From a virus (taxonomy: Duplodnaviria > Caudoviricetes): DNA of 64,000 nucleotides. Positions 31,501-60,020 of the stretch are shown piece by piece (positions within the stretch are counted from its first letter, which is position 1; each line of letters begins with the position of its first letter). Under the pieces are notes generated by a model. That model was not told where the DNA came from and did no database searches. It saw only the letters and a list, made by a program, of their open reading frames with translations. Made by a program: the position numbers and the translations under genes. The DNA lies in the IMG/VR virus record IMGVR_UViG_3300033067_001009, positions 11,905 to 75,904 of that record; one strand, 5' to 3'.

Positions 31501-34169
31501 TCTCCGAGTTCGACACTCAGTACCCGCAGTTCGAGATCGCCGCCCAGCAGGTGTACGACTGGAACCGTGGCGTTCTTGAGTATGTCCGTCAAATGGTTCC
31601 CGACCTCGACGAATCGATCCAGCGGGTCTTGGACAGTTCTCAGAACTACGTTCCTTTGATGCGTGTGTTTGATGACGTGGAAGAGGATGTGTTGGCGGGT
31701 AAGTACAGCGGGTTCGGGAGTAATTCTCTTAAGACTTTGAAAGGGTCTGACAGGAGGGTGAAGTCGATCTTTCCGCAGCTCTTGGCAAATGCCGAGCGGC
31801 TCATTCAGATGGCGCACAAGCGCAAGGTGCTGGACACCATCGTCAGTCTGGGCGAGATCGATGGCGTTGGTCAGCTGATCGAAGAGGTGCCGCAGTCCCA
31901 GCGTCCGAACAACGTGACCATCGAGCAGATCGCCAGAGGTCTGACGGATGCCGGTGTCGATCTGGACGGCATCGATCTGGATCAAGCGATCACGTATTTC
32001 ACACCAGCCCAGCGTCCGCAAGGTAAAGACCCGATTGTACCGCTCGTCAGGGACGGCGCGATTCGCTGGTACTACGTGAATGCCGAGCTGTACAACACAC
32101 TTTCCGGCCTGGACATACACAAACTCCATCCGATACTGGATTGGACGTTCGGCGTGTCGACACGTGCGTTCCGTCTAGGAACCACCGGACTCAAAGCATC
32201 GTTCTCTTTGTTCACTAATCCGATGCGCGACATCCCGACTCTGTATATGCAGACCCAGACTAATAATCCGGCACGGCTGGTGATGGAGTATTTCAGGGCT
32301 ATTGGTTCGGCGCTCAACCCTAAACGGTTGGTAGGAGAGAATACCACTGCACTTGATTTAGTGCACCGTCTCGGTGTCTCTATGTCACAGCCTCTCGGAA
32401 CTGATGAGGCAATCACGACCAAGGCATCCAAGGAACTATTCAAGTCCCCGTTCAAACGGGTCGTCACCCAGCCTATCACGATGCTGCGCGAACTGTTGAG
32501 CACACCGGAAATGATCCCACGTGAAGCAGAGGTGCGAGCTATCGCCAAAGAGATAGGTTACACTATCGGAACCCCGATGGATTTCAATACGATGGTACAG
32601 CTGAGTCTCGCCGGTCGTCGGGCGACTGTCGACTTTGCGGCGATGGGTACGGTGGGCAGAGTAATGAACCAGATGATTCCGTTTTTCAATGCGAATATTC
32701 AGGGATCACGGTCGTTCATCCGTGCTTACCAAGCACGTCCCGTGCGTACTACTTTAACCGGATTGGCGGTGATGACGTTGCCGACTTTATGGCTCTGGTG
32801 GAAGTACAAGGACGAGGATTGGTGGCGCAAGATGCCGACCCGCGAGAAGTTCCAGTACTGGCACTTTCGTGTCGGTGACGAGGTGATCCAGATTCCCAGA
32901 ACTCAGGATTGGGGAGGTGTGTTCGCGTCTGTCCCCGAAGCTCTGCTCGACGGGTGGTATCAACGTGACCCGAAAGGTGTGGAGAAATCAATGGGTTACC
33001 TCTTTGACAACGTCACTCCTGACATTCTCCCGACGATTGCCAGAGCCGCTGTCGAGCAGCTCGGCAACCGCATCGATTACTTCGACCGGCCTATCGTACC
33101 TACCGGCGATCTTAATAAACCGGCAGCGGAGCAGTACAGCCCGTACACCTCGGTGTTCGCTAAGTGGTTGGGTGCTCATCTTCCGAACTGGAAAGTCCTG
33201 AACATCCCGATCAACAGCCCTCGCCGGATCGATGCGCTCATCCGGACGATGGCTGGCGGGGTCGGTAGCGATCTGGCGCATCTTTTGGACATTAGTAAAA
33301 AGGATTTGACGTTAAGTGATCTGCCGGTTATCGGCAGAGCATTCAGGCAGGGTGGCGTGGAGGGTGTCGGCAGCACCGATGTCGAGAACTTCTACGATGC
33401 TTTGGATGAAGCTAAGACCAGAGCGGCGAGCGAGGCGAATCCCGAGTCCCCGCAGGAGCAGCAGCAGCGTCAGCTTCTCGAAGACACCAGCAAGACCATC
33501 GCTGTCGTCAGGAAGCTGGCTGTCGAAGCTCCGACCGTGAGAGAGCGGGAGCGGTACTCGCGTCTCGTCAACGCGCTGGCCGATTTGGCAGTCAACCGCA
33601 AGCTCGACTATACGACCGAGCAGAACCGGAAGCTGCTGCCGGAGGACATCGACCTGCTCAAGCAGACCGAATCCAAGATCGCAGAAGTGACTCAGGTGAC
33701 CGGCGCGTTCGATTCAGGAAAGGTCGAGGACATCAAGGAGCTGCCGAAGAGAGATCAGCGGGAGGTTTTGAAAGAGGGGCTGCTGACCGATCAGCAGCAG
33801 AAGTTCTCGTCTCTGACGAATGTGGAGAAGCTGTTCAAGTTTCGAGTGTCGACACTCGAAGACAAGGCACGGCAGTCGGCATTCATCACGAAAGCGATCA
33901 ACGATCTGAAAGCGAAGCGGGACAAGCAGCCGAACGAACAAGCATTGATTGGTGAATTGGAACGTGCTCAGTCGAACTTCGATGCGGAATTATCGAAGCA
34001 GCCGGAAGATGAGCGACGGAGGTTGGAACAGATCGACGACGAGACCGAGAAAGCTGTTTCTGTGGGAGGCAGAACTCGTCGCAGGAGTAGGCCAGCAAGA
34101 GAGGGTCGCCCCAATAAGAACGACCCTCTGAACAAACTGTTCAAGTTCTACGAGCAGAAACAGAACTAG
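22569..34169 (+). CDS. Giant polyvalent virion/ejection protein: lytic transglycosylase, SH3/KOW-like modules, GHKL ATPase, two HExxH motifs, LPD38-like C-terminal region
   Basis: SLT: AMMAKESSG..AKGYMQV..ANITAGVRY..ALAAYNAG. GHKL: KEAFQNSFDA, VTDNGIGM, GGFGMAK. Metallopeptidase-type motifs: LHEAVH and AHEVGH. LPD38-like: QMIPFFNANIQG..WHF..IPR. Confidence 0.85.
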   Translation: MFDEEAVNAAANALLKMSPQTEATFSAPDVVPEPVPEPTPVPQPEPMPPIPQNNDDEEDVQTRTKRIAKREGVDPKLILAMMAKESSGKKKARSWANAKGYMQVTPDKIKTYYKENPNADPYDAEANITAGVRYMKRLLKRYGGDVRKALAAYNAGEKQALDRPDWEKYAETWSNDKEVQAGRKPRGKSDPTNTLNYVNHIYSNYKSGKTFTDVGYQIDDEAVNAAANALKNMPPPKVDEDAINAAAAALSKSQPPATTITPTEGTTPTPETYPRTDVQGFDKQGNPATVAKFGDTPIPPVTPTSVDTQTDDALPEVAQKTEGITNPPEFEFWDKTTGQQFWVDPDRKGLKDSQIRLLPVPNVVKTPEDKAKQDNTPRIIEKDPDGNYYFVQTGQVATKQPTVVQKVRKVPTKVPVSQPSGDGQIRSPLEELKTTGQTKLGSATVKMVGQPDGDTIKVEDEDGETYKIDAKTGDVEDESMAEVADTFSFNRVPLNLRPTTSLEDAKTQATYQIASQMKSKYGIAVQDFAAWQANKGFIDFDTKGEANPDSFYQPYTTDESTPSTELGKSLLTTNTYSITRREMAELQQFSARQSKAREDAVLQMIASGQFPTPETLNRLEVDLAKIANDRRDDYMMAREKQAVSLEDFDRFKRESYMRGMDDYEASITAGTKLGWYTDKFAQTELENWRKEKLNAQSRVDAAYGGDQNPDNAVRIQLEKRAAVGVLQQRAQQFGTITNLVNIRLKMQQEEAAAKQAIEDRMNQLWGGGTLPSLAYFGEATKNVVFNFGKGLYSTVISDMVKGAVTITKPIADGASMLLGVEGTRNLNVSDNIVYRAMQTVDDFVDKAKPSTNDDFRQTDSPAGFFVSDIPQGVASSLGFLLPSVSKYPRVAIALYSTVGMVSNGYEEAKAAGADEIDAQRYGIVSGGLLGWTEIFGSSEALIRLNRGSGGALWRQFLKKAFAEAAKEVPEEIFQEGVQTIGSNALARLTYDPNRELDRGLGRAMLAAGFSAGLVSTGVTLLNTVRYSRQIKTALAADRANGIETLRNFGNGNVYLYGKKITVTDEIQPLIDKHTELHDRITTAYKLMDRLKTEAQTVPLEKRAEFYKLIQDIAKNTAKDVVEQRNTAQAILDRTNPTKPDIVDTMTPEQVAEVREEPVPPPVAAVEEEQKKYIVVEPINKPEEKGQGTFVDNAADIEQSGVPEPIFKGALPTGAAPVDTNPVQETAPEPASVDTQGYTYDPNSPTPWRDFVESKGHKFRDIKATSPEYPALRDEFNKLKEAHTDIAPATEPVQEDPKPMTPRPTQTQTEYIQKYVGLHGDLFADAAQAAADEHYAVVKEHVKNGGTITKKVYDSMQPRHQRHFDQHYNSRGDKITANASISSTTATKPYHVSVGDVIQVDLPHGTHTMKVTDVDGRMVHGLKSDADGNTVKERISVELGEHKVTNLSAPETKLGGVDNASIVDDGKLPNSQSVKAGDSITYGNQKATVVKVTNKTVVVQHDGDTKTRTIKKDTFDALPVVNHTGQAEADQLTHGREFGTSTATPEEAADRQWEQVQEEEAKSQPVQPRLDGVETKESPENMEPHANGATPLETWAKDNPDAVRDIDTQYPAPTEDEMTIVKLFDDPESVENWEKSPAALLKMLQKHDLLDGLTMSEVSDDLKEDLKEAEDAEERQQMKLDYITEQLGYESNPFGDKYEARWQALYDRYTEIYNRNQQQGTATEVAAEEAPVSEEPAAKFYEGDEVTLKDGTDAVVSSVLPDGKLEVEMPDGTLETVPISSVKPQVEENTAPTSVSPEASIYDHDELEARMDQLYKDTYLDTQGLETMYRLLMSGQHDKLNELLTLIETGIAQTSYMASEKQLKNIKGKVTANIRALLRLIGEQMYKGDIVEINVKEAFQNSFDAVKAAVEKGLITNPQIKIALDQSNRTLTVTDNGIGMNKKIILESFLVIAGSSKENTDPSGGFGMAKAPLLFGNDWVDVTTIRDGVKYTFRITPEHADGNNVDIKQEATTEPSGTTLIMRIPEKVQSTSGDEKDVWLPYDLSRIQTLSKPLLGDVEVLAGDSWGGETTWKPITTMGKHFDYSQIPKFTSVNFSWGSADIYIGTEKKDKYDVKHNILSNGIYQFDIMFGKYDSRFPHDVMVDVHPKAKAGDAAYPFDIRREGFNHLIEKDVAALKAYIETIGLIEQVEDEAETFKSMKQLPRVKVNGLAMTTEQKEAVKDTVKKENAPVEKPQVKYDNLQVKDGVISTTDKTTGKTVILIDTNEGKDTDEGDGEGERKKAFDKSFDPDKKLKTAADMLHDIGIDPSQPVFHNNTNIDWMSFHPDAPEFFSQMGSLMSDLKEEIAKLGDYVSKAVKPDFYSGISIDKSYAGVNIKIPFSGMFINPFYVAAGVGTDFNGIVKSLYHTMLHEAVHFYVRAHNDSFASGLWTIDSNMATTGAHAKMTVKLEMVLKKHFEMYKEMKKEYDKFSTKNIRGSLEGERSESDESFEPELSDEQIEQRSERFWGKLWNRYANATSEPVVSVSNAEEGRKDSERLPSDKKQNQIVPDKQSSVDISKLSVGDQVTFRSGAKGFVVSVEDGKVTAVLQDGTFKELKAIKPKIEKNPSTDQNKTTLSVDTASAPAEPTDPVTSPYESLEDEEVHNMLINDINLPLQQQVQSGYGGTKVSSTDVINSFRKVLEQIGNTVIRMGRTGNIQAEGIYKPRVEVIRLGRANKITAAAHEVGHAIQKAVFGAVSGRSLGGLSPIVRRQLIDLGRELYGDRVPKGGYAAEGFAEFIRMALTGDTTTVNVSAVEDWYNNEFLPNNPELETVLWDARSTVDDYINQGAKSRSDANMPVKKSVKERLAGLRNFFRKIPTWMNEDLTPLLRLTRRVESITGLKLSFGEDPYSVGSALRGLAPSRVAYMAYENMVDANGNIVGRPLIDATQLVRDSERDFTHYLWARRTIELLDRTKTLDDGTVVPDPKASGMSREDAEFLISEFDTQYPQFEIAAQQVYDWNRGVLEYVRQMVPDLDESIQRVLDSSQNYVPLMRVFDDVEEDVLAGKYSGFGSNSLKTLKGSDRRVKSIFPQLLANAERLIQMAHKRKVLDTIVSLGEIDGVGQLIEEVPQSQRPNNVTIEQIARGLTDAGVDLDGIDLDQAITYFTPAQRPQGKDPIVPLVRDGAIRWYYVNAELYNTLSGLDIHKLHPILDWTFGVSTRAFRLGTTGLKASFSLFTNPMRDIPTLYMQTQTNNPARLVMEYFRAIGSALNPKRLVGENTTALDLVHRLGVSMSQPLGTDEAITTKASKELFKSPFKRVVTQPITMLRELLSTPEMIPREAEVRAIAKEIGYTIGTPMDFNTMVQLSLAGRRATVDFAAMGTVGRVMNQMIPFFNANIQGSRSFIRAYQARPVRTTLTGLAVMTLPTLWLWWKYKDEDWWRKMPTREKFQYWHFRVGDEVIQIPRTQDWGGVFASVPEALLDGWYQRDPKGVEKSMGYLFDNVTPDILPTIARAAVEQLGNRIDYFDRPIVPTGDLNKPAAEQYSPYTSVFAKWLGAHLPNWKVLNIPINSPRRIDALIRTMAGGVGSDLAHLLDISKKDLTLSDLPVIGRAFRQGGVEGVGSTDVENFYDALDEAKTRAASEANPESPQEQQQRQLLEDTSKTIAVVRKLAVEAPTVRERERYSRLVNALADLAVNRKLDYTTEQNRKLLPEDIDLLKQTESKIAEVTQVTGAFDSGKVEDIKELPKRDQREVLKEGLLTDQQQKFSSLTNVEKLFKFRVSTLEDKARQSAFITKAINDLKAKRDKQPNEQALIGELERAQSNFDAELSKQPEDERRRLEQIDDETEKAVSVGGRTRRRSRPAREGRPNKNDPLNKLFKFYEQKQN
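33841..33860. repeat. 20-bp perfect palindrome TTCGAGTGTCGACACTCGAA
   Basis: Inside the giant ORF, read as FRVSTLE. Confidence 0.95.
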
Positions 34170-35191
34170 GCAGCGCCGGTGTCACCATCGGGAGCCGCAG
34201 TCGTAGTAACTTTCGGCGCGGCTTTCTTTTTGGGAGCGGCCTTGCCTTTGGCTTTCGATGCCGGTTTGGCTTTCGCCTTGGTGGTTTTCTTCGCCGCTTT
34301 CTTCGGCGCGGCTTTCTTCACGACGGGCTTCGGCGGCGGCAGGGGAGCGTCACCGAACTCCTGCTTGCCCATCTTGAGAATCCACGAAGACATCGAGCCG
34401 TACTTGCCCTGCACCTTGTCGACCACGTACTGCATCTGATCCGAGACGACGACCTGAATGTTCATCATCCGTTCCTTGACGGTTTTCTTCTTGCCGCTTT
34501 CGGCTTCCTTGAGAGCGGCTTCCCGTTCTTTCAAGTCGGCCTTGCGAACTTCGTCGATGTTCATCCCACCGTTGACCCGCTTGACATCGCGTCGGGCGAA
34601 GTCCTTGCCGTACGCCAGCGTCGACTGCCGCATTTCACGGAAGTAGTCGAGCATTTCGTCCGGCGTACACCACGTGGTGTCCTGCACCTGCAAGGCCAGC
34701 CGGTAATCTTCCCGTGCCAGCAGGGCTTCCGGCGAGTTGCCCAAGTCTTCGACGAGCTGCTTGCCGAACTGCTTGTAGATGCGGAAGTCTTCCTGTAAGG
34801 TCTGACGCTCCACCCCGACTTCCTTGCAGATGCCGCGCAGGACGGTGTCGACACCGTTACCGGCCTCGGTGTTAAATTCCTTACCGGCTTCCTGAACCCG
34901 CAGGACGATTTCGTAGGCCGCCGCGCCCCGCAGGACGAACGCCGCTTTCTCCGTTTCGACGACCGAGCCGAACAGCCGCTTGAGCTGGTCGTCGCTCATC
35001 AGCTTCTTGCCATCTTTGTCGGTACCGTGGATGACGTTCACCAGTGTCGCCGCACGACCTGACACCGACAGGCTGGTGCTGGCTGCGTTGTACTGGATAA
35101 GGTTCATATCTGTGGCTTCCGGCGTCTCGATGATCTCGGCATCCAAGACTTCGACTTCTTCATTTACTTTGTTGTTGATTTGTTCTGACAT
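34166..35191 (-). CDS. Hypothetical protein with Lys/Ala/Pro-rich histone-H1-like C-tail
   Basis: Ends PKPVVKKAAPKKAAKKTTKAKAKPASKAKGKAAPKKKAAPK. Confidence 0.65.
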   Translation of the reverse strand: MSEQINNKVNEEVEVLDAEIIETPEATDMNLIQYNAASTSLSVSGRAATLVNVIHGTDKDGKKLMSDDQLKRLFGSVVETEKAAFVLRGAAAYEIVLRVQEAGKEFNTEAGNGVDTVLRGICKEVGVERQTLQEDFRIYKQFGKQLVEDLGNSPEALLAREDYRLALQVQDTTWCTPDEMLDYFREMRQSTLAYGKDFARRDVKRVNGGMNIDEVRKADLKEREAALKEAESGKKKTVKERMMNIQVVVSDQMQYVVDKVQGKYGSMSSWILKMGKQEFGDAPLPPPKPVVKKAAPKKAAKKTTKAKAKPASKAKGKAAPKKKAAPKVTTTAAPDGDTGAA

Positions 35192-35257
35192 TTTTATTTC
35201 TCCTAACTTAAGTTAATTGTTGACTGTTGACTGTTGACTATGGCGATTCACGCCGAT

Positions 35258-37246: not shown

Positions 37247-37427
37247 TACTATCCCACATTAAGTATGCCCGTATCCCGTAGAACACTCCAGTCGGCGCAA
37301 TAACAAGCACCAACCAATATAATCCCGCACCGAGCAGGAACACGATTGATGCCGCCACAATGTACACTGCGGACGCTATCGCTACACCTATGTACGTGAA
37401 TAGCTCTCGTTCTTCGTTTTCGTTCAT
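37221..37427 (-). CDS. Small membrane protein
   Basis: Two hydrophobic segments. Confidence 0.45.
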   Translation of the reverse strand: MNENEERELFTYIGVAIASAVYIVAASIVFLLGAGLYWLVLVIAPTGVFYGIRAYLMWDSNGGNESER

Positions 37428-38821
37428 AATTTCATTTTCGGTGACATCGGAGGTATGTCTCTCGCGCCATACATCCCCGAGGCTTTACGCTGTTTGTCAA
37501 GCAGCGTGGACGAGAACGTCTGCAAGTTTTTATGAAACACCGTGGGTACCCGCCATCCGGCAGCACCGTTGCGTTGTTTCTCGCAGAGTATCTCCAAGTA
37601 CATATCGTGCTCGCCCAGCTTCTCATCGTCGGGTGGCTCGACTTCCTGCAAGTGGATCAGAAGATCAGCGTCCATCTTGATCTGACGGCTCCATCTCATC
37701 TTCTTGGGTTCTTGCCGTTGCGGTCTGGGATTGTTGCCGTTCCCGTTCCGTTGCTGGTTCGGGTTATCGGCGTACTGGGACAATGCGATGGAAGCCACCG
37801 GAGGTATGCCCCTCTTCCTGTCTCCGATGGTCAGGGACTTCCACGTCTTCGAGATCGTCGAGACACGTGTTACGTCCGAGTCTTTCGCATCCGTGTCGGC
37901 CATCTGCAAATAGTCGAGGATGGCGGCGACCACGTCACGCTTGACGGCGAGCGTCTGGACGATGCGCTTGATGGCGAAGATGTTCGAGACCCCCTCGATG
38001 ATGACGATGTTGTACTTCCGGCAGTAGTCGATGGCGAACTTGACATCGTCGAAGAACTTGGGATTTTTCAGATTCTCCTGAGTCAGTCGCTTGCCTGTCA
38101 GACGTGGGGACTCCATCGCCATCCGGTAGCACAGCATTTCCTTGGACATCTCAAGCGAGGCCACTGCCGTCTTGAGCCGTCCGATCTTCGAGTTCATCTT
38201 GGCGATGTGCATCATCATCGCCGTCTTGCCGCCACCGCTCTCACCACCGATCACGGTATATCCGGTCAGCTGGGACAGGAACAGCCAGTCGTCCAGCTCG
38301 GGGATATGGACACGGTACGGGTTCTCTCCGGCTCGCCAACCGGCGAGCATCGTCATTGCCGAGTCGGCAGTCTGTTCCATATCGAACGCATACTGCAAGT
38401 CCGACTCGCCCTCGTCGACACGGTCAAGCATTCCACGGACGGCATCTGCGATCTCGGCTGGCGGGGTGCCTCTCTTTTCGTGACGGTCGATATATTTCTT
38501 TAGCTCGCTGATACGGTTGCGAGCACCGCTCTCTTTGAACTGCTGAAATATCTCGTCCGTCAGCTCCGGTGTCTGGGAGTCGAACGCGACCGACACCATA
38601 ATACGGGTGGTCATATCGTCCGGCAGCGCAGCCGTCAGCGTCTCTCGTGTGATACGCTCGTTCGTCTGGTGCTTCTGCACGATGATATTGAATATCTTAT
38701 CGTGACCGGCAAAGACGAAATCACTCTTGGTCGTCCGGTGCAGATACTTGTCTCTCGCTTCCTTGGAACTGCAAAAGTTTTGAATCACAATTCCCTCGGA
38801 GCTGGTATCATTGTTTGCCAT
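37424..38821 (-). CDS. dnaB: Replicative DnaB-like helicase
   Basis: Walker A GGESGGGKT, SLEMS, ILDYLQ, MDAD and KQRNG motifs. Confidence 0.85.
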   Translation of the reverse strand: MANNDTSSEGIVIQNFCSSKEARDKYLHRTTKSDFVFAGHDKIFNIIVQKHQTNERITRETLTAALPDDMTTRIMVSVAFDSQTPELTDEIFQQFKESGARNRISELKKYIDRHEKRGTPPAEIADAVRGMLDRVDEGESDLQYAFDMEQTADSAMTMLAGWRAGENPYRVHIPELDDWLFLSQLTGYTVIGGESGGGKTAMMMHIAKMNSKIGRLKTAVASLEMSKEMLCYRMAMESPRLTGKRLTQENLKNPKFFDDVKFAIDYCRKYNIVIIEGVSNIFAIKRIVQTLAVKRDVVAAILDYLQMADTDAKDSDVTRVSTISKTWKSLTIGDRKRGIPPVASIALSQYADNPNQQRNGNGNNPRPQRQEPKKMRWSRQIKMDADLLIHLQEVEPPDDEKLGEHDMYLEILCEKQRNGAAGWRVPTVFHKNLQTFSSTLLDKQRKASGMYGARDIPPMSPKMKL

Positions 38822-39149
38822 TGATTGTATCTCTCTCCTGTAAGTACTGCTCTATCTCTCTATACAGAGCAGAGTTCCTGTGCTTGCCGTAGCTGGGTCT
38901 GTAAGGCGACTGGCCTATCTTGGCAGCTTCGGGCGCTGTACGGCCTCTATAACGCTGTACAGCCACAGATTCATACACTTCCTCAACCTTGTTTCTCAGG
39001 GCATCGGCAGCTTGTTTAAGAGATTGCACGTTATCTGCGGTGGCCTTTATGCGAATCTCTACTTTAGCGGCTCGGAGTTTCTCGACCAGCTGATCCATCC
39101 ACATCAGCGAATCGAACGCGACCTCAAGTGGGGATTTCGACTTCTTCAT
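38808..39149 (-). CDS. Hypothetical protein upstream of helicase
   Basis: 113 aa, overlaps the dnaB start. Confidence 0.45.
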   Translation of the reverse strand: MKKSKSPLEVAFDSLMWMDQLVEKLRAAKVEIRIKATADNVQSLKQAADALRNKVEEVYESVAVQRYRGRTAPEAAKIGQSPYRPSYGKHRNSALYREIEQYLQERDTINGKQ

Positions 39150-39393
39150 TTCTTTTCACCGCTTCTCTGTAACCGATGTGCAGCCGCTGGTCTCCGAGTA
39201 GGACGATCTCCTCGCCGTACATCGTCACTGCTCGCTCGTTTTTTCCCCAGCGGGATACGCGATAAGCGCTGTTTCCGAGCGGCTCCACAAAGAACTCGTA
39301 GTTCAAACTCGTTTTGAATTTGACCTTACGCTTCAACGTATCCGCAATGACCAGCGCATCGTGTACGCTGATCTGACTCATTAGCTTTGGCAT
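39124..39393 (-). CDS. Hypothetical protein
   Basis: ATG at 39393 with an AGGAG RBS. Confidence 0.4.
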   Translation of the reverse strand: MPKLMSQISVHDALVIADTLKRKVKFKTSLNYEFFVEPLGNSAYRVSRWGKNERAVTMYGEEIVLLGDQRLHIGYREAVKRNEEVEIPT

Positions 39394-39563
39394 TTGTTTA
39401 TCTCCTCTAGTTTCTTTTTGGCCACTATCAATTTCTCTCTCGCAGTCTTGACGTGCTCCGGCAACTCTTCGATCAGTGCCTCGTCGTAACAATGCACCGC
39501 ATTGAGCAGACCATCTATCTCTTCTTTTCTCAAACGTAACGCTATGCTTTTTGCTTCTGCCAT
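39381..39563 (-). CDS. Small hypothetical protein
   Basis: 60 aa; the GGAGA RBS directly follows the repeat copy at 39576. Confidence 0.45.
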   Translation of the reverse strand: MAEAKSIALRLRKEEIDGLLNAVHCYDEALIEELPEHVKTAREKLIVAKKKLEEINKCQS

Positions 39564-39816
39564 AATTTTATCTCCAGTGTCGACACTCGTGACTTGGGGA
39601 AAACCTACGGAAAGGGGTTCTTGGGGTGGACAAGAGTGATACCTGCTTGGAAGCGTAAACTTCGCTGCATCTCTTAACCCAAGAAAAAAATCTTTCGATT
39701 CTCATAAGTTCGCAAGTGTGACGTTCTTGTTATTTTTAAGGGTAAGATTCATTATACTTGATACTTCTCACCCTTGTTACTTCTAATGTCGGTCTCCTAA
39801 AGCAGCGGATGCCTAG

Positions 39817-39861
39817 GGAGACCTGTGGTGACCAGTTCACCCCTTAGGAGACCTGTGGTGA
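39817..39861. repeat. Two 15-bp direct repeats GGAGACCTGTGGTGA, period 30 bp (iteron-like)
   Basis: Copies at 39817-39831 and 39847-39861 straddle the rep stop codon; AT-rich DNA follows on the - strand. Confidence 0.7.
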
Positions 39862-40143
39862 ATCGTTGACTATCCACTCCCAGTATGCGAACATACCTTT
39901 CTTGCGAACAGCCTCGATTCGCAGGTACCCGCACTCTTTCAAGTTAGCTGTGATCCGGTCGATGCGCTTGCGCCCGATGTCGAACCGCTCCATCAGCGTG
40001 TCTCTGCTGATCTTGAAGTTGTCGTCGTGGCTGCTGAGATACACGAGCATACCCAGTTCATCCAGCGCCAGACGTTTATCACGCATAGCCGCATTACTGA
40101 GCACCGTGTAGTTCTTTTTGTACTGGTTACGTACTCTAATCAT
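39844..40143 (-). CDS. Short winged-helix replication-initiator-like protein
   Basis: KNYTVLSNAAMRDKRL...GMLVYLSSH..F.IS...L..RF..G...I......L...GYL, typical of phage replisome-organiser N-termini. Confidence 0.65.
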   Translation of the reverse strand: MIRVRNQYKKNYTVLSNAAMRDKRLALDELGMLVYLSSHDDNFKISRDTLMERFDIGRKRIDRITANLKECGYLRIEAVRKKGMFAYWEWIVNDSPQVS

Positions 40144-40159
40144 TTTGGTTTTATTCGAT

Positions 40160-40188
40160 TTGACTTGTGGAAACTTTCGTGGTAGCTT
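40160..40188 (+). promoter_or_regulatory. Antisense promoter convergent with the rep promoter
   Basis: TTGACT-17bp-TAGCTT with an extended TGn. Confidence 0.6.
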
Positions 40189-40194
40189 TATAGA

Positions 40195-40276
40195 CGTGAA
40201 CGATAGTTTCCATCACGGAACAAATTGAATTTAAGTTGTTTTAACAGGTGCAGACCATAATCTGCACCTGTTTTTT
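40195..40276 (+). ncRNA. Predicted ~80-nt countertranscript RNA antisense to the rep leader
   Basis: Bounded by a + strand promoter and a + strand intrinsic terminator; no ORF; lies wholly inside the predicted rep 5' leader. Confidence 0.5.
40243..40276 (+). terminator. Intrinsic terminator
   Basis: AACAGGTGCAGA-ccataa-TCTGCACCTGTT followed by TTTT. Confidence 0.75.
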
Positions 40277-40291
40277 CTTTCTGTTTTTCGG

Positions 40292-40314
40292 AGTACTCAA
40301 TCGGGATGAGTACT
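40292..40314. promoter_or_regulatory. Inverted repeat (operator or hairpin) at the rep transcription start
   Basis: AGTACTCA-7bp-TGAGTACT. Confidence 0.5.
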
Positions 40315-40318
40315 TAAC

Positions 40319-40347
40319 ATATTACTCCGGCTAATAACCAATGTCAA
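40319..40347 (-). promoter_or_regulatory. Sigma70-type promoter for rep and downstream replication genes
   Basis: TTGACA-17bp-TAATAT on the - strand. Confidence 0.7.
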
Positions 40348-40354
40348 CTGTACA

Positions 40355-41980
40355 CTAACCTCCTGACGATAAGTCCTTTAGATGGTGGTAGATAGCCCAC
40401 GTCTTCGGAAAGCACTGCTCGACGATCTTGTCGACAGCCTTGGCGTACTGCTGGATTTCCCACTGGGCAGCCGGATCATCACGGAGCGACAGGAACGCCA
40501 ACCAGTTCCTGAGAACGGCAGACGCTCGCATCTGCGAATATCTGCCGACCGGAATCACGACCCTCGCCAGCTCTTTCGGAATACCGCAGGTCAGACCGTA
40601 CTGGTATAACTGCTCCGCATCATTGTAGAACGCAGCCAGAGCGTTCTCCCAGTGGGTAGCGTTGTTGTCGTTCAGCTCGGCAGCACCGATAGCGACACCG
40701 GCTTGCTTGTTCGTCGTACTTGTCAGGTACAGTCGCTCGCGTGTCGGCTCATAGTTGACATCCGGCAGCGGCGCGTACCGTGCAGACATCTCGTTGTATG
40801 AATTATGAATCAACAAGTTATCTGCCGCAAACCAGTTGTTTCCAGTTACCGAAATGTCGAAAGTGTCTTTCAAACCCAGAGCGTTAATGGATAGTATCTT
40901 AACCGGAACTTCTCTTAATCGCTTTCTACCACCGTTAAGTTGACTATCATCTGCGTTGTCTTGAGCAGTGCCGAGTTTCAGATTCAGCAATCTGTTATCT
41001 AAAGGGTTGTCGTTCTTATGTAGAACCCATTCGCTAGACCTGCCTAAGAATGCGTTAGCAACCAGCACCGAGACCTGTACCGTCTTGTTGTTAATTGAAA
41101 CTACCGCTCTGTGGTCGGTGTTCACTGTTTGAGTTTTGAGGTAGGGCTGCCTCTGCTTTCTGACTCCTCTGGTTGACCAGTAAGAACGTACCCTGCCGAG
41201 ATTAGATACTTCGTATCCTTCGGATACTTCTCGCCACTCTTCGTTCATTATTTCTTCATTACTGATAGCAGGGAACACCGATGCCGCACCTCTGTCACCA
41301 TTTTGTATCATCGCCATCACTTCCGTAATACCGTCCTTTAGCCTACCCGAACCGTAAGGAGTCTTGAACAAATGGTCTTCTGACACCTCTACCTCTCCGT
41401 ACTTGGTACGAACCAAGTACACCTGTTTTTGCCCTGTGTGCCAAGCGCCGGTTACATTAACAAACCCGTCATTGTTTCGTAACTGCATTGCGGAAATCCT
41501 TGCTTTGGTTTTAGGGTTTAAGAACCCAGAAACCACGTCCAGCATAGATTTTCTGTAAGCCTTTCCGTCAACAGGTCTGTTAAATACCAACGGTGTACTA
41601 CCTGAAACGCACTGTGTCCGATGACGGTGCCATTCCCTGAACACGAAGATCGGGGCGCGAACTTCGATAATCATTCCGGCGAACTCGAACGGTGTCGAGT
41701 GTCGATTCTTAAACATAAAGTTCAGCAGATTTGTGTCGTTGGCTAGTTTGCCGAAGCACTGCGCCCCAGTACGGTCATTGTGGGCTGCTATCTTAGCTAT
41801 GAACTGCTTATCGCAGTCAGGACAGTAACACACGTCCCACCCACGGAAGTTCCCCTGTGTCGATTGCCTCGCAGCCTCGATGATTCCGGCCTCGTCGACT
41901 CCGGCATCACCCCCGCCCCAGTACTCGACCAGCCTGACGAACCCGTGGTCAAGCACCGGTATGTTGATTTCTTTCTTCAT
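40355..41980 (-). CDS. thyX: Flavin-dependent thymidylate synthase, intein-interrupted
   Basis: HGFVRLV, HSTPFE and REWHRHRTQ|intein|SYNEMSARY (RHRxxSxxxxSxR motif). Confidence 0.92.
   Translation of the reverse strand: MKKEINIPVLDHGFVRLVEYWGGGDAGVDEAGIIEAARQSTQGNFRGWDVCYCPDCDKQFIAKIAAHNDRTGAQCFGKLANDTNLLNFMFKNRHSTPFEFAGMIIEVRAPIFVFREWHRHRTQCVSGSTPLVFNRPVDGKAYRKSMLDVVSGFLNPKTKARISAMQLRNNDGFVNVTGAWHTGQKQVYLVRTKYGEVEVSEDHLFKTPYGSGRLKDGITEVMAMIQNGDRGAASVFPAISNEEIMNEEWREVSEGYEVSNLGRVRSYWSTRGVRKQRQPYLKTQTVNTDHRAVVSINNKTVQVSVLVANAFLGRSSEWVLHKNDNPLDNRLLNLKLGTAQDNADDSQLNGGRKRLREVPVKILSINALGLKDTFDISVTGNNWFAADNLLIHNSYNEMSARYAPLPDVNYEPTRERLYLTSTTNKQAGVAIGAAELNDNNATHWENALAAFYNDAEQLYQYGLTCGIPKELARVVIPVGRYSQMRASAVLRNWLAFLSLRDDPAAQWEIQQYAKAVDKIVEQCFPKTWAIYHHLKDLSSGG
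40802..41611 (-). mobile_element. Intein (270 aa) with NUMOD4/HNH-type homing endonuclease
   Basis: Cys1 (CVSGSTP), VSEDHLF block B, terminal HN then Ser+1. Inner YEVSNLGRVRS and VLHKNDNPLDNRLLNL. Visibly more AT-rich than the flanks. Confidence 0.9.
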
Positions 41981-42422
41981 TTTTAATCTCCTCCTCGATT
42001 TGTTCGACTGCCACATCGAGCGGCAGTGCTATGGTTCCGCACACGATTCCGAGCGCATTACTCAGCAACGTGTCCAGCTCGAATACAGCACCGGCCTTTT
42101 CCCACATCTCGATCCGCGCCGGACGCATATCGCTGAACCGATTTTTGTTTACCCGTTCTTGGTAGCGCCGGATGTAGGTCGATGCTTTCTTAAGATCGTC
42201 GATCTTGTTGTCGTGCTTCCGACCGGCGCGGCAGATGTACTTTGCCGCATTACCAAGCCGGAAGTCCAAACGAAAGAACTCGATCACCTCGTCGACGAAC
42301 CACCCGTGGTAGTAGTTCCGACCGCTATGAGTGTCGACACTCGAAGCAGCCGCAGTACCTGCTGCGTTCTTCCAGCAGTAACCCTCGTCCTTTCCGCATT
42401 CTTCACATATTAACTTTCCCAT
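41949..42422 (-). CDS. DUF3310-like (T7 gp1.7-like nucleotide kinase family) protein
   Basis: HSGRNYY...FRLGNAAKYICRAGRK...DDLKKASTYI. Confidence 0.7.
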   Translation of the reverse strand: MGKLICEECGKDEGYCWKNAAGTAAASSVDTHSGRNYYHGWFVDEVIEFFRLDFRLGNAAKYICRAGRKHDNKIDDLKKASTYIRRYQERVNKNRFSDMRPARIEMWEKAGAVFELDTLLSNALGIVCGTIALPLDVAVEQIEEEIKNEERNQHTGA

Positions 42423-47119: not shown

Positions 47120-47896
47120 TTATCCATCATACTTTAGGCTTACTTTGTGCTTGTTGTAGTAATTGAAGATGTCCTCGATCAGTGCTAGATACTGATCCAC
47201 CGACGCGCACTTGCAAATAGCTGCCGGACGGGTCTGCAACTTCTGCACGAACTTCCGGTGATTGAACTTTTTATTGCCCATAACTTTCAGGTAGGCCGAT
47301 ACGAAGTTACGGTCACGGTATCCCTTGAAGTACGGCGCGATCTCCTCGATCAAACGTGCCTTGCGCTCTGCTTCGGCCAGATCGGCAACCACCAGCTGAC
47401 CTCCGATGAACAAGTCACTCAGCTTGCCGTGACCACGCTCCGTCGAATGCAGCAGCTCGACCGTAATAACGTGCGGGAATTTGTACCGCGCTTTGAAATC
47501 TCGATAAATAACGTAGTTGTTATTTCCGCTGTCGATGTATGAGCTGGCGTAATCGTCCGATGTCCATTTACGCTTAATGACGTTGAACCGTTGGATGTGC
47601 TCAAGCGTATAGTCCGGCTCAACGTAGTAGAACACTATTTCGTTGAGCCGCTTGCGAGCTTCGAGTGTGTGCTGCCCGTCGATCACCTCATTATCCTTAT
47701 TGATAACGATGGGGATGCACAAATCGTTTGCCTGAATAGCTGCCATAATGCTTTTGATATGCTTCTCTACTAAGGCTCTGTTGCCTTTAACGTGTTTGAA
47801 CATATCGTAATCCGTGGTCATCTCTATCGTCCTGTTGATAACCGGCTCGGTCGCCGGTTTTTTGGTATTTTTCTTTGTCATATAGTCTAGCCTCAC
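47120..47896 (-). CDS. ParB/Srx-fold protein
   Basis: NRALVEKHIKSI...IPIVINKDNEVIDGQHTLEA. Confidence 0.65.
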   Translation of the reverse strand: MRLDYMTKKNTKKPATEPVINRTIEMTTDYDMFKHVKGNRALVEKHIKSIMAAIQANDLCIPIVINKDNEVIDGQHTLEARKRLNEIVFYYVEPDYTLEHIQRFNVIKRKWTSDDYASSYIDSGNNNYVIYRDFKARYKFPHVITVELLHSTERGHGKLSDLFIGGQLVVADLAEAERKARLIEEIAPYFKGYRDRNFVSAYLKVMGNKKFNHRKFVQKLQTRPAAICKCASVDQYLALIEDIFNYYNKHKVSLKYDG

Positions 47897-55666: not shown

Positions 55667-55877
55667 ACTGTTACCTCCTGCCAACTCGTAAGCCGTGACA
55701 TTCGACACCACGTCCCTGTCCTCCAGCTCATCGAGCATACCCGCTATATACGTCGCCGCATCCTCGGCACCGTACGCTGCCTCCACCTCAGTCACTTCTA
55801 ACTCAAGAGTGACTAAGAACTGTTTAATCATAACACCTCCAAGTGAACAAAAGCCGAACGTTATTTCTTAGCTCGGC

Positions 55878-55906
55878 TTGACAAGTACCCTAGCCCTAGC
55901 TACAAT
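55878..55906 (+). promoter_or_regulatory. Near-consensus sigma70 promoter antisense to the early genes
   Basis: TTGACA-17bp-TACAAT. Confidence 0.6.
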
Positions 55907-55942
55907 CTAATTGTCTTCGGTTGCTTGGGCGAGGGGAATGCT

Positions 55943-59695: not shown

Positions 59696-59753
59696 AGTTT
59701 AATCCTTTACTTTTCTTTCAAGTATGAAAGTTTTTAACACCTGTTGTCTCGGC

Positions 59754-59781
59754 TTGACAGGGTGTTACCCTGTGCTACCAT
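59754..59781 (+). promoter_or_regulatory. Second antisense sigma70-like promoter, homologous to the 55878 element
   Basis: TTGACA-16bp-TACCAT; shares CTCGGCTTGACA and GCTACxATxTAATTGT with the 55872-55914 site. Confidence 0.5.
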
Positions 59782-60020
59782 TTAATTGTATCCAGTTGCT
59801 CGGTCGAGGAAGTTGCTTTAGCGTAGGCGTACATCGCCAGCTCTAAAAACGATACTTCAACCTCTTCCTTGTAGTAACCGGATTCACCAGTTCTGATTCT
59901 AATCAGTAACCGGTTGTTGAGCCTGTCCTCTTCCAGACTACCGACGGTGTAGAAGTTATTCCCCACCTTGGCTGTTATCAAGCCTCGAAGAAACGCAGCC
60001 TTATCCTCATCAGTGAACAT
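59775..60020 (-). CDS. Hypothetical protein
   Basis: 81 aa with a GGAGG RBS. Confidence 0.45.
   Translation of the reverse strand: MFTDEDKAAFLRGLITAKVGNNFYTVGSLEEDRLNNRLLIRIRTGESGYYKEEVEVSFLELAMYAYAKATSSTEQLDTIKW

Follow-up and report, generated by a model that had tools for sequence, protein, structure and literature searches.

A possible cis-antisense RNA opposite the leader of a DnaD-like replication initiator gene in an uncultured phage

The 211-nt spacer between thyX and rep in the genome of an uncultured phage is tentatively assigned as the control region of a replication-initiator operon, in which a cis-antisense RNA of ~85 nt opposite the rep leader would lower expression of the initiator. 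A probability of about 0.4 is given to this reading taken as a whole. The spacer carries a strong minus strand promoter for rep and, facing it, an intrinsic terminator that is directed against the surrounding genes. The sequence window is a 64-kb stretch (bases 11905-75904) of a linear IMG/VR viral contig of 75.9 kb, whose completeness is estimated by CheckV at 62%.

The rep gene and the replication module

The window is organized in two gene blocks of opposite direction, the structural genes on the plus strand being followed by a second block on the minus strand (Table 1). The direction of the latter is borne out by codon-usage scoring for every ORF tested near rep. Read along the minus strand, the replication module codes for a Rad52-like recombinase, a DUF3310/kinase-like protein and ThyX, and continues after the spacer with rep, a non-coding stretch of 280 nt, four small genes, DnaB and a topoisomerase-like gene; RusA, ParB-like and PolA genes are found further upstream in the module. 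The AT-rich non-coding stretches that flank rep are the two largest in the module, and three repeat families are private to the rep locus. Two features of the neighbourhood are recorded here. The thyX product (553 aa) has a Thy1 domain interrupted in frame by a NUMOD4/HNH endonuclease segment (~residues 236-414), an arrangement resembling an intein or a homing endonuclease inserted in frame. The heptamer AGTCAAC occurs three times in tandem (35219-35239) within a 66-nt AT-rich spacer that precedes a gene coding for a 341-aa protein (34166-35191).

Table 1. Features of the rep locus and of other regions discussed in the text. Positions are those of the window except where contig numbering is indicated.
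Feature	Position	Strand	Description
Structural genes	up to 34169	+	
Second gene block	34166 to window end	-	
DnaB gene	37424-38821	-	
Non-coding stretch	39564-39843		280 nt, directly after the repeats; with promoter-like site
Second promoter-like site	39751-39780	-	GTAACA-18-TATAAT; would serve genes between rep and dnaB
Iteron-like repeats	39791-39870		3' end of rep; GGTCTCC-Y-TA-R-G, two direct copies and one inverted copy
rep	39844-40143	-	99-aa winged-helix protein
thyX/rep spacer	40144-40354		211 nt
Upstream ORF in leader	40151-40213	-	20 codons; read from sequence
Convergent promoter, candidate	40160-40188	+	TTGACT (40160-65), 17-nt spacer ending TGG, TAGCTT (40183-88)
IR-B	40168-40212		13-nt arms (40168-80, 40200-12), 12/13 complementary, 19 nt apart
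cis-antisense RNA, putative	40195-40282	+	~85-88 nt if from the 40160 promoter; inferred
Intrinsic terminator	40243-40282	+	stem-loop 40243-40272, then T-rich tract
IR-A	40292-40314		8-bp arms AGTACTCA / TGAGTACT, 7-nt spacer; over +1 of the minus strand transcript
rep-operon promoter	40319-40347	-	sigma-70-type TTGACA-17-TAATAT, 10/12 match
thyX	40355-42016	-	Thy1 domain; gene upstream of the rep spacer
ParB-like gene	47120-47896	-	phrog_12305, E 2.5e-20; directly downstream of PolA
Other terminator	2471-2492 (contig numbering)	-	tail with run of eight T, TTTTTTTTGT

The rep protein is homologous to the DNA-binding domain found at the amino terminus of DnaD-like helicase loaders and of replication initiation proteins from phages. 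It matches phrog_186, phrog_4221, phrog_428 and other PHROG families with E values of 1e-11 to 1e-8, Pfam returned a sub-threshold HTH_36 match only, and neither PDB sequences nor NCBIfam added useful matches. Among 1.84 billion representative sequences, a full HMMER scan identified 2907 relatives. Most of them are proteins of 200-400 aa with the match at the amino terminus, and a few, P0011 and P0012 among them, are stand-alone proteins of ~100 aa; gp44 of Gordonia phage VanLee is another stand-alone form. The closest relative is 45% identical to rep, which remains a singleton at 90% clustering. The protein does not have the carboxyl terminal helicase-loading/oligomerisation domain, its ORF coming to an end at 99 aa, where the first iteron-like repeat is reached. 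From this homology and from the position of the gene, rep may fairly be called the origin-binding or initiator-like component of the module. The same initiator-plus-DnaB logic is found in phage VanLee, whose gp44 is a stand-alone "RepA-like" protein of 101 aa.

As had been predicted, the ATG at 40143 lacks a Shine-Dalgarno sequence: no GGAG-like motif is found in the preceding 25 nt, and such motifs are present before most ATG-started genes of the phage. This absence would suit a gene held at low, regulated expression. Translation of rep from a leaderless mRNA was rejected, as no usable -10/-35 pair lies directly ahead of the ATG. The leader carries a small ORF whose AUG falls within the segment opposed by the putative antisense RNA and whose stop precedes the rep AUG by 7 nt; this ORF, too, lacks a Shine-Dalgarno sequence, its length does not exceed what chance would give, and it is weak evidence. 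At its other end rep stops at a 29-nt repeat, the first of a direct pair whose GGTCTCC core recurs once more in inverted form. The 280-nt non-coding stretch that follows also holds one copy of a palindrome, GAGTGTCGACAC, present genome-wide. Together with the GGTCTCC repeats this stretch is a candidate replication origin, and the likeliest one. DnaA boxes were rejected as an origin mark, since they show no enrichment (52 found against 64 expected).

Opposing transcription signals in the thyX-rep spacer

Promoters were scored with a simple sigma-70 weight matrix, whose consensus frequencies follow published compilations only approximately. The minus strand promoter proposed originally for rep is present and ranks 5 among the ~152,000 positions of the contig; a score as high is reached in only 0.3% of the dinucleotide shuffles of its 88-nt surroundings (p ~0.003). 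Its -35 hexamer is preceded by the thyX TAG stop at a distance of 8 nt. Transcription is predicted to start near 40312, which gives a leader of ~169 nt up to the rep ATG and agrees with the ~170 nt first proposed. Other high-ranking minus strand sites precede the topoisomerase-like gene, the gene cluster that follows rep and PolA, and host sigma-70 promoters therefore seem to drive the minus strand block. A search for a T7-type RNA polymerase domain found no match, but as control genomes likewise gave none with the model used, this negative is uninformative.

The minus strand leader is strongly structured, with z = -5.6 for its whole length and z = -5.2 for the segment 40144-40243. Two inverted repeats are found in this region, each of them single-copy in the window. 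IR-A, over the transcription start, may be either operator-like DNA or a hairpin that stabilises the 5' end of the mRNA. IR-B forms a long hairpin in the leader RNA and, at the DNA level, brackets the -10 hexamer and the start point of the candidate plus strand promoter.

The terminator with a 12-bp stem that had been predicted in the spacer is confirmed. Its 12 pairs are perfect (6 of them GC), the loop has 6 nt, and 8 of the 10 nt that follow on the plus strand are T. A scan of the contig for stems of at least 9 pairs with at least 7 T in the next 10 nt retained only two sites in 75.9 kb, namely this one, on the plus strand, and one near the left end, on the minus strand. At the second site T occupies 9 of the 10 positions that follow the stem, and the signals occur in the ordinary order: the stop of a gene, the terminator and, 35-40 nt further on, a TTGACA-16-(TG)TATTCT promoter. 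Such signals are therefore evidently used by the host polymerase, and the reversed orientation at rep stands out. The plus strand ORFs in the vicinity all score negative for coding, whereas rep and its minus strand neighbours score positive. The terminator thus closes no plus strand mRNA, and a plus strand protein gene ending at it was rejected on the same scores. Because the element is directed against the genes and serves none on its own strand, any RNA that ends there is antisense to the rep leader.

Intrinsic terminators require a U tract. On the minus strand the hairpin is followed by TTAAAAC, which has two U only and forms no such tract; it qualifies as a terminator on the plus strand only and should terminate poorly in the other direction. 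This bears on the reading of the hairpin as a weak minus strand terminator that ends the thyX operon, a role which the original prediction had itself set against antisense control, or as an attenuator that stops transcripts from the rep promoter early. Its location between thyX and rep, ~40 nt after the minus strand transcription start, is compatible with such a function, and an A tract lies upstream of the hairpin, as it does in bidirectional terminators. Apart from the composition of the tail, the function is contradicted by the genuine minus strand terminator of the phage, which has a run of eight T, and by the position of the hairpin after the rep promoter and not before it. It is retained as a very unlikely explanation.

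The convergent promoter predicted on the plus strand has a less secure basis. The sequence is there, 55 nt upstream of the hairpin, with a 5/6 match in the -35 hexamer, a 3/6 match in the -10 hexamer, an extended TG and a T-rich upstream flank, and it ranks 28 genome-wide. However, shuffles of the local AT-rich 143 nt yield an equal or better site 9% of the time (p ~0.09). The site is plausible as a promoter, but it is not above chance and is not evidence on its own. For this reason the predicted antisense unit is only partly confirmed: its architecture is plausible and its terminator is real, but its promoter is statistically unsecured. Two further plus strand promoter-like sites of similar score occur at ~39752-39787 and 39866-39894.

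An RNA that starts from the 40160 promoter would have a weakly structured 5' segment of 48 nt (z = -0.75) and the terminator hairpin as its 3' end. It would be complementary to positions ~+33 to +118 of the leader, leaving 52 nt up to the rep start codon, a gap that excludes direct occlusion of the start site by this RNA. A longer RNA, started from the promoter-like sites within rep or past it, would span the start codon. In 28 viral loci with distant rep homologues, none of the upstream regions showed a convincing antisense terminator.

Elsewhere in the minus strand gene block, two paralogous plus strand elements of ~63 nt are found (55872-55934 and 59748-59809). They are composed of CTCGGC-TTGACA, a spacer of 17 or 16 nt, TACAAT or TACCAT, and a conserved stretch of 27 nt, for which 2 matches are observed and 0.00 expected; their promoters rank 1st and 6th of ~152,000 positions. 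The hexamers appear to have been kept while the spacer diverged, as expected for real promoters, and transcription from both would oppose small minus strand genes at their 3' ends. The presence of two consensus plus strand promoters within this block suggests that counter-directional transcription is used by the phage.

The doubt about the 40160 promoter leaves room for a reading in which no plus strand RNA is made and the hairpin acts in the minus strand leader RNA, or in the DNA, as an mRNA stabiliser, a binding site for RNase III or another protein, or an origin structure. The T tract would then be a by-product of the A-rich minus strand, which has 39% A in the spacer. The strong structure of the leader is consistent with this possibility, and so are the slightly higher stability of the hairpin on the minus strand (-20.4 vs -19.1 kcal/mol on the plus strand) and the density of inverted and direct repeats at the locus, as in origins. 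Nevertheless, at least 8 A in the 10 nt beside the hairpin on the minus strand side have p ~0.011 even when the local A content is taken into account, and the combination of a GC-rich stem of 10-12 bp with a loop of 6 nt and a U8-type tract corresponds exactly to the terminator consensus and occurs only twice in the contig. The lack of DnaA box enrichment also speaks against the origin variant. A hairpin that acts without a plus strand RNA is possible but rather unlikely.

If plus strand transcripts do reach the hairpin, the terminator could be a mere insulator that shields the rep promoter and thyX from transcription coming from the AT-rich rep/origin region. Several plus strand promoter-like sites of similar score lie at most 500 nt upstream and the terminator stands immediately ahead of the minus strand promoter; antisense-oriented terminators make up 9% of those mapped in virulent Pseudomonas phages (PMC10914365). 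Yet any RNA ending at this position would be antisense to the leader of rep, and to the gene itself if it started further upstream, and a complete lack of effect would be surprising. Insulation as the sole function is considered unlikely; it differs from antisense control in degree and not in kind.

The preferred explanation, antisense control of rep, would proceed as follows. Host sigma-70 RNA polymerase would start at the strong minus strand promoter and produce the leader, with three hairpins and an A-rich end around a start codon devoid of a ribosome-binding site. Against it, a short plus strand RNA would be made, of ~85 nt from TTGACT/TGgTAGCTT or longer from the sites inside and beyond rep, and end at the strong plus strand terminator. 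Being fully complementary to the leader, this RNA would anneal to the rep mRNA and reduce expression of the initiator. Likely routes are cleavage of the duplex, refolding of the leader at the IR-B hairpin and blocking of the small upstream ORF; decay triggered by the duplex would resemble the action of oop with RNase III (PMC3985674). Interference between convergent polymerases is a further remaining route. Placed between the two start points, the terminator would halt plus strand polymerases before they reach the minus strand promoter, so that an effect of the RNA is favoured over promoter occlusion. The RNA would in this way meter or time synthesis of the initiator during ordinary phage development.

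Comparison with known antisense systems

The closest functional analogue among phages is the pO/oop unit of lambda. There, a short terminated leftward transcript is made beside the initiator gene O and opposes pR, and promoter interplay at pO/oop tunes replication (PMC3985674). The rep locus fits it in sequence layout and would share with it a short, terminated antisense transcript that starts beside the initiator gene and runs against the initiator operon; as in lambda, host sigma-70 promoters would face each other in a phage replication region. The targets differ. While oop overlaps the cII 3' end and acts on the cII mRNA via RNase III (PMC3985674), the putative RNA would overlap only the rep leader and end 75 nt before the thyX stop; the terminator, whose T tract reaches ~40282, does not overlap thyX, whose stop lies at 40355. 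The initiators differ as well, the one found here being a 99-aa DnaD-like winged-helix protein unlike lambda O, and there is no sequence similarity to pO/oop. Terminators and promoters that face against a co-directional gene block are also known from virulent Pseudomonas phages, in which 20 antisense RNAs have mapped starts (PMC10914365). These units were mapped experimentally, are mostly of unknown function, and none is described in the leader of an initiator gene (PMC10914365).

The original prediction had assigned the unit to the antisense copy-number control of R1, pT181 and repABC replicons. This assignment is not upheld, because Rfam searches were negative, the Rep protein is unrelated and no attenuator is found. 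In the whole window no Rfam family was matched at gathering thresholds, CopA, ctRNA_pT181, ctRNA_p42d, ctRNA_pGA1, ctRNA_pND324 and RNAI included, and a search of 38500-41500 that admitted E values up to 1 gave nothing relevant. The readings as a tRNA or as another known RNA family were rejected. What survives is that the unit would work like plasmid countertranscripts, and not that it is a member of one of their families.

With pT181, pIP501 and pMV158 the unit would have in common a pair of promoters that converge within the rep leader and an intrinsic terminator at which the antisense RNA ends (PMC5703833, PMC4981023, PMC4485353). In addition, the weakly structured 5' tail of the putative RNA could begin pairing, as in pMV158 RNAII. 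However, pT181 and pIP501 act by attenuation, and no minus strand hairpin with a U tract is found between 40243 and 40143, that is, between the antisense target and the rep AUG. The pT181/pIP501 mechanism is therefore unsupported, and a pT181-type attenuator was rejected for this leader. RNAII of pMV158 spans the start region of repB, unlike the putative RNA with its 52-nt gap. No plasmid of this group has an Rfam match at the locus. The repABC ctRNAs resemble the putative RNA in being small antisense RNAs, with a rho-independent terminator, encoded in the spacer just before the initiator gene. Here, in contrast, thyX takes the upstream place of the repA/repB partition genes, RepC is unrelated to rep and ctRNA_p42d has no match.

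The parallel with R1 CopA/CopT extends further. It comprises a putative antisense RNA of ~85-90 nt directed to the rep leader well upstream of the start codon, a poor ribosome-binding site of rep, and a small leader ORF, which is tap in R1 and which here starts within the antisense target and ends near the rep AUG. In the R1 mechanism the antisense RNA would block translation of the leader ORF needed for the rep start, and the sole hint of it, a weak one, is the 20-codon ORF without ribosome-binding site. This ORF is statistically unsupported, the Rep proteins are unrelated, CopA finds no match through Rfam, and the replicon is a phage of at least 76 kb with its own polymerase and helicase. 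A control of this kind, coupled to an episomal or carrier state in which the orphan ParB-like protein takes part, is judged quite improbable. If true, it would allow a large phage that encodes a polymerase and a helicase to persist unintegrated while its copy number is kept under control.

Many antisense RNAs directed to rep leaders have already been described, as have phage terminators of antisense orientation, and the finding opens no long-standing question. If the RNA exists, it would provide compact antisense control of an initiator in an uncultured phage lineage without described relatives and a second phage example beside lambda pO/oop. It would also indicate that the layout of plasmid countertranscripts can arise on an unrelated initiator family.

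Relatives and lifestyle of the phage

The phage lineage is isolated, with no cultured phage or plasmid matching it at the DNA level. The rep region has no blastn match in phages or plasmids, and the only plasmid matches to rep are DnaD-domain genes of ~30% identity on Bacillus phage-like plasmids. The nearest DnaB, P0003, is 64% identical and is encoded on a 77.8 kb JGI contig; PolA has no close relative among viral contigs. Queries with DnaB, a DnaB alignment, P0003 and PolA identified no related locus in viral, metagenome or genome collections.

It had also been proposed that the phage persists as a low-copy plasmid-like prophage whose copy number is set by the rep unit in the manner of plasmids. 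This proposal drew on the resemblance of the layout to the R1, pT181 and repABC countertranscript units, on a ParB-fold gene and on the absence of an integrase from the window. The last two points hold in part. The ParB-like protein has a PHROG match but, with E values up to 0.01 admitted, none to Pfam ParB_N. The contig, which represents ~62% of the genome, gave no match to Phage_integrase, ParB_N, ParA-type AAA_31 or HTH_3 when searched in six frames, so that an integrase is absent from the whole contig as well as from the window; since 38% of the genome is unseen, this absence proves nothing and neither lifestyle is proven. In the left 12 kb of the contig the terminase is the only PHROG match. 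The distant rep homologues on Bacillus phage-like plasmids are compatible with the proposal. It is opposed by the lack of ParA and of an HTH_3-type repressor in the contig, and the searches run found no relative among 72,556 plasmids or 185,579 species genomes. Antisense RNAs and terminators of antisense orientation are, in addition, frequent in strictly virulent phages (PMC10914365). Furthermore, the phage has its own PolA, DnaB, Rad52-like, RusA and ThyX proteins, and its replication module looks like the lytic type of ordinary phages such as VanLee. A plasmid-prophage lifestyle thus has no positive support, and the proposal as a whole is highly improbable. Note that a terminator-like hairpin of plus strand orientation (47840-47859) is found within the 5' end of the ParB-like gene.
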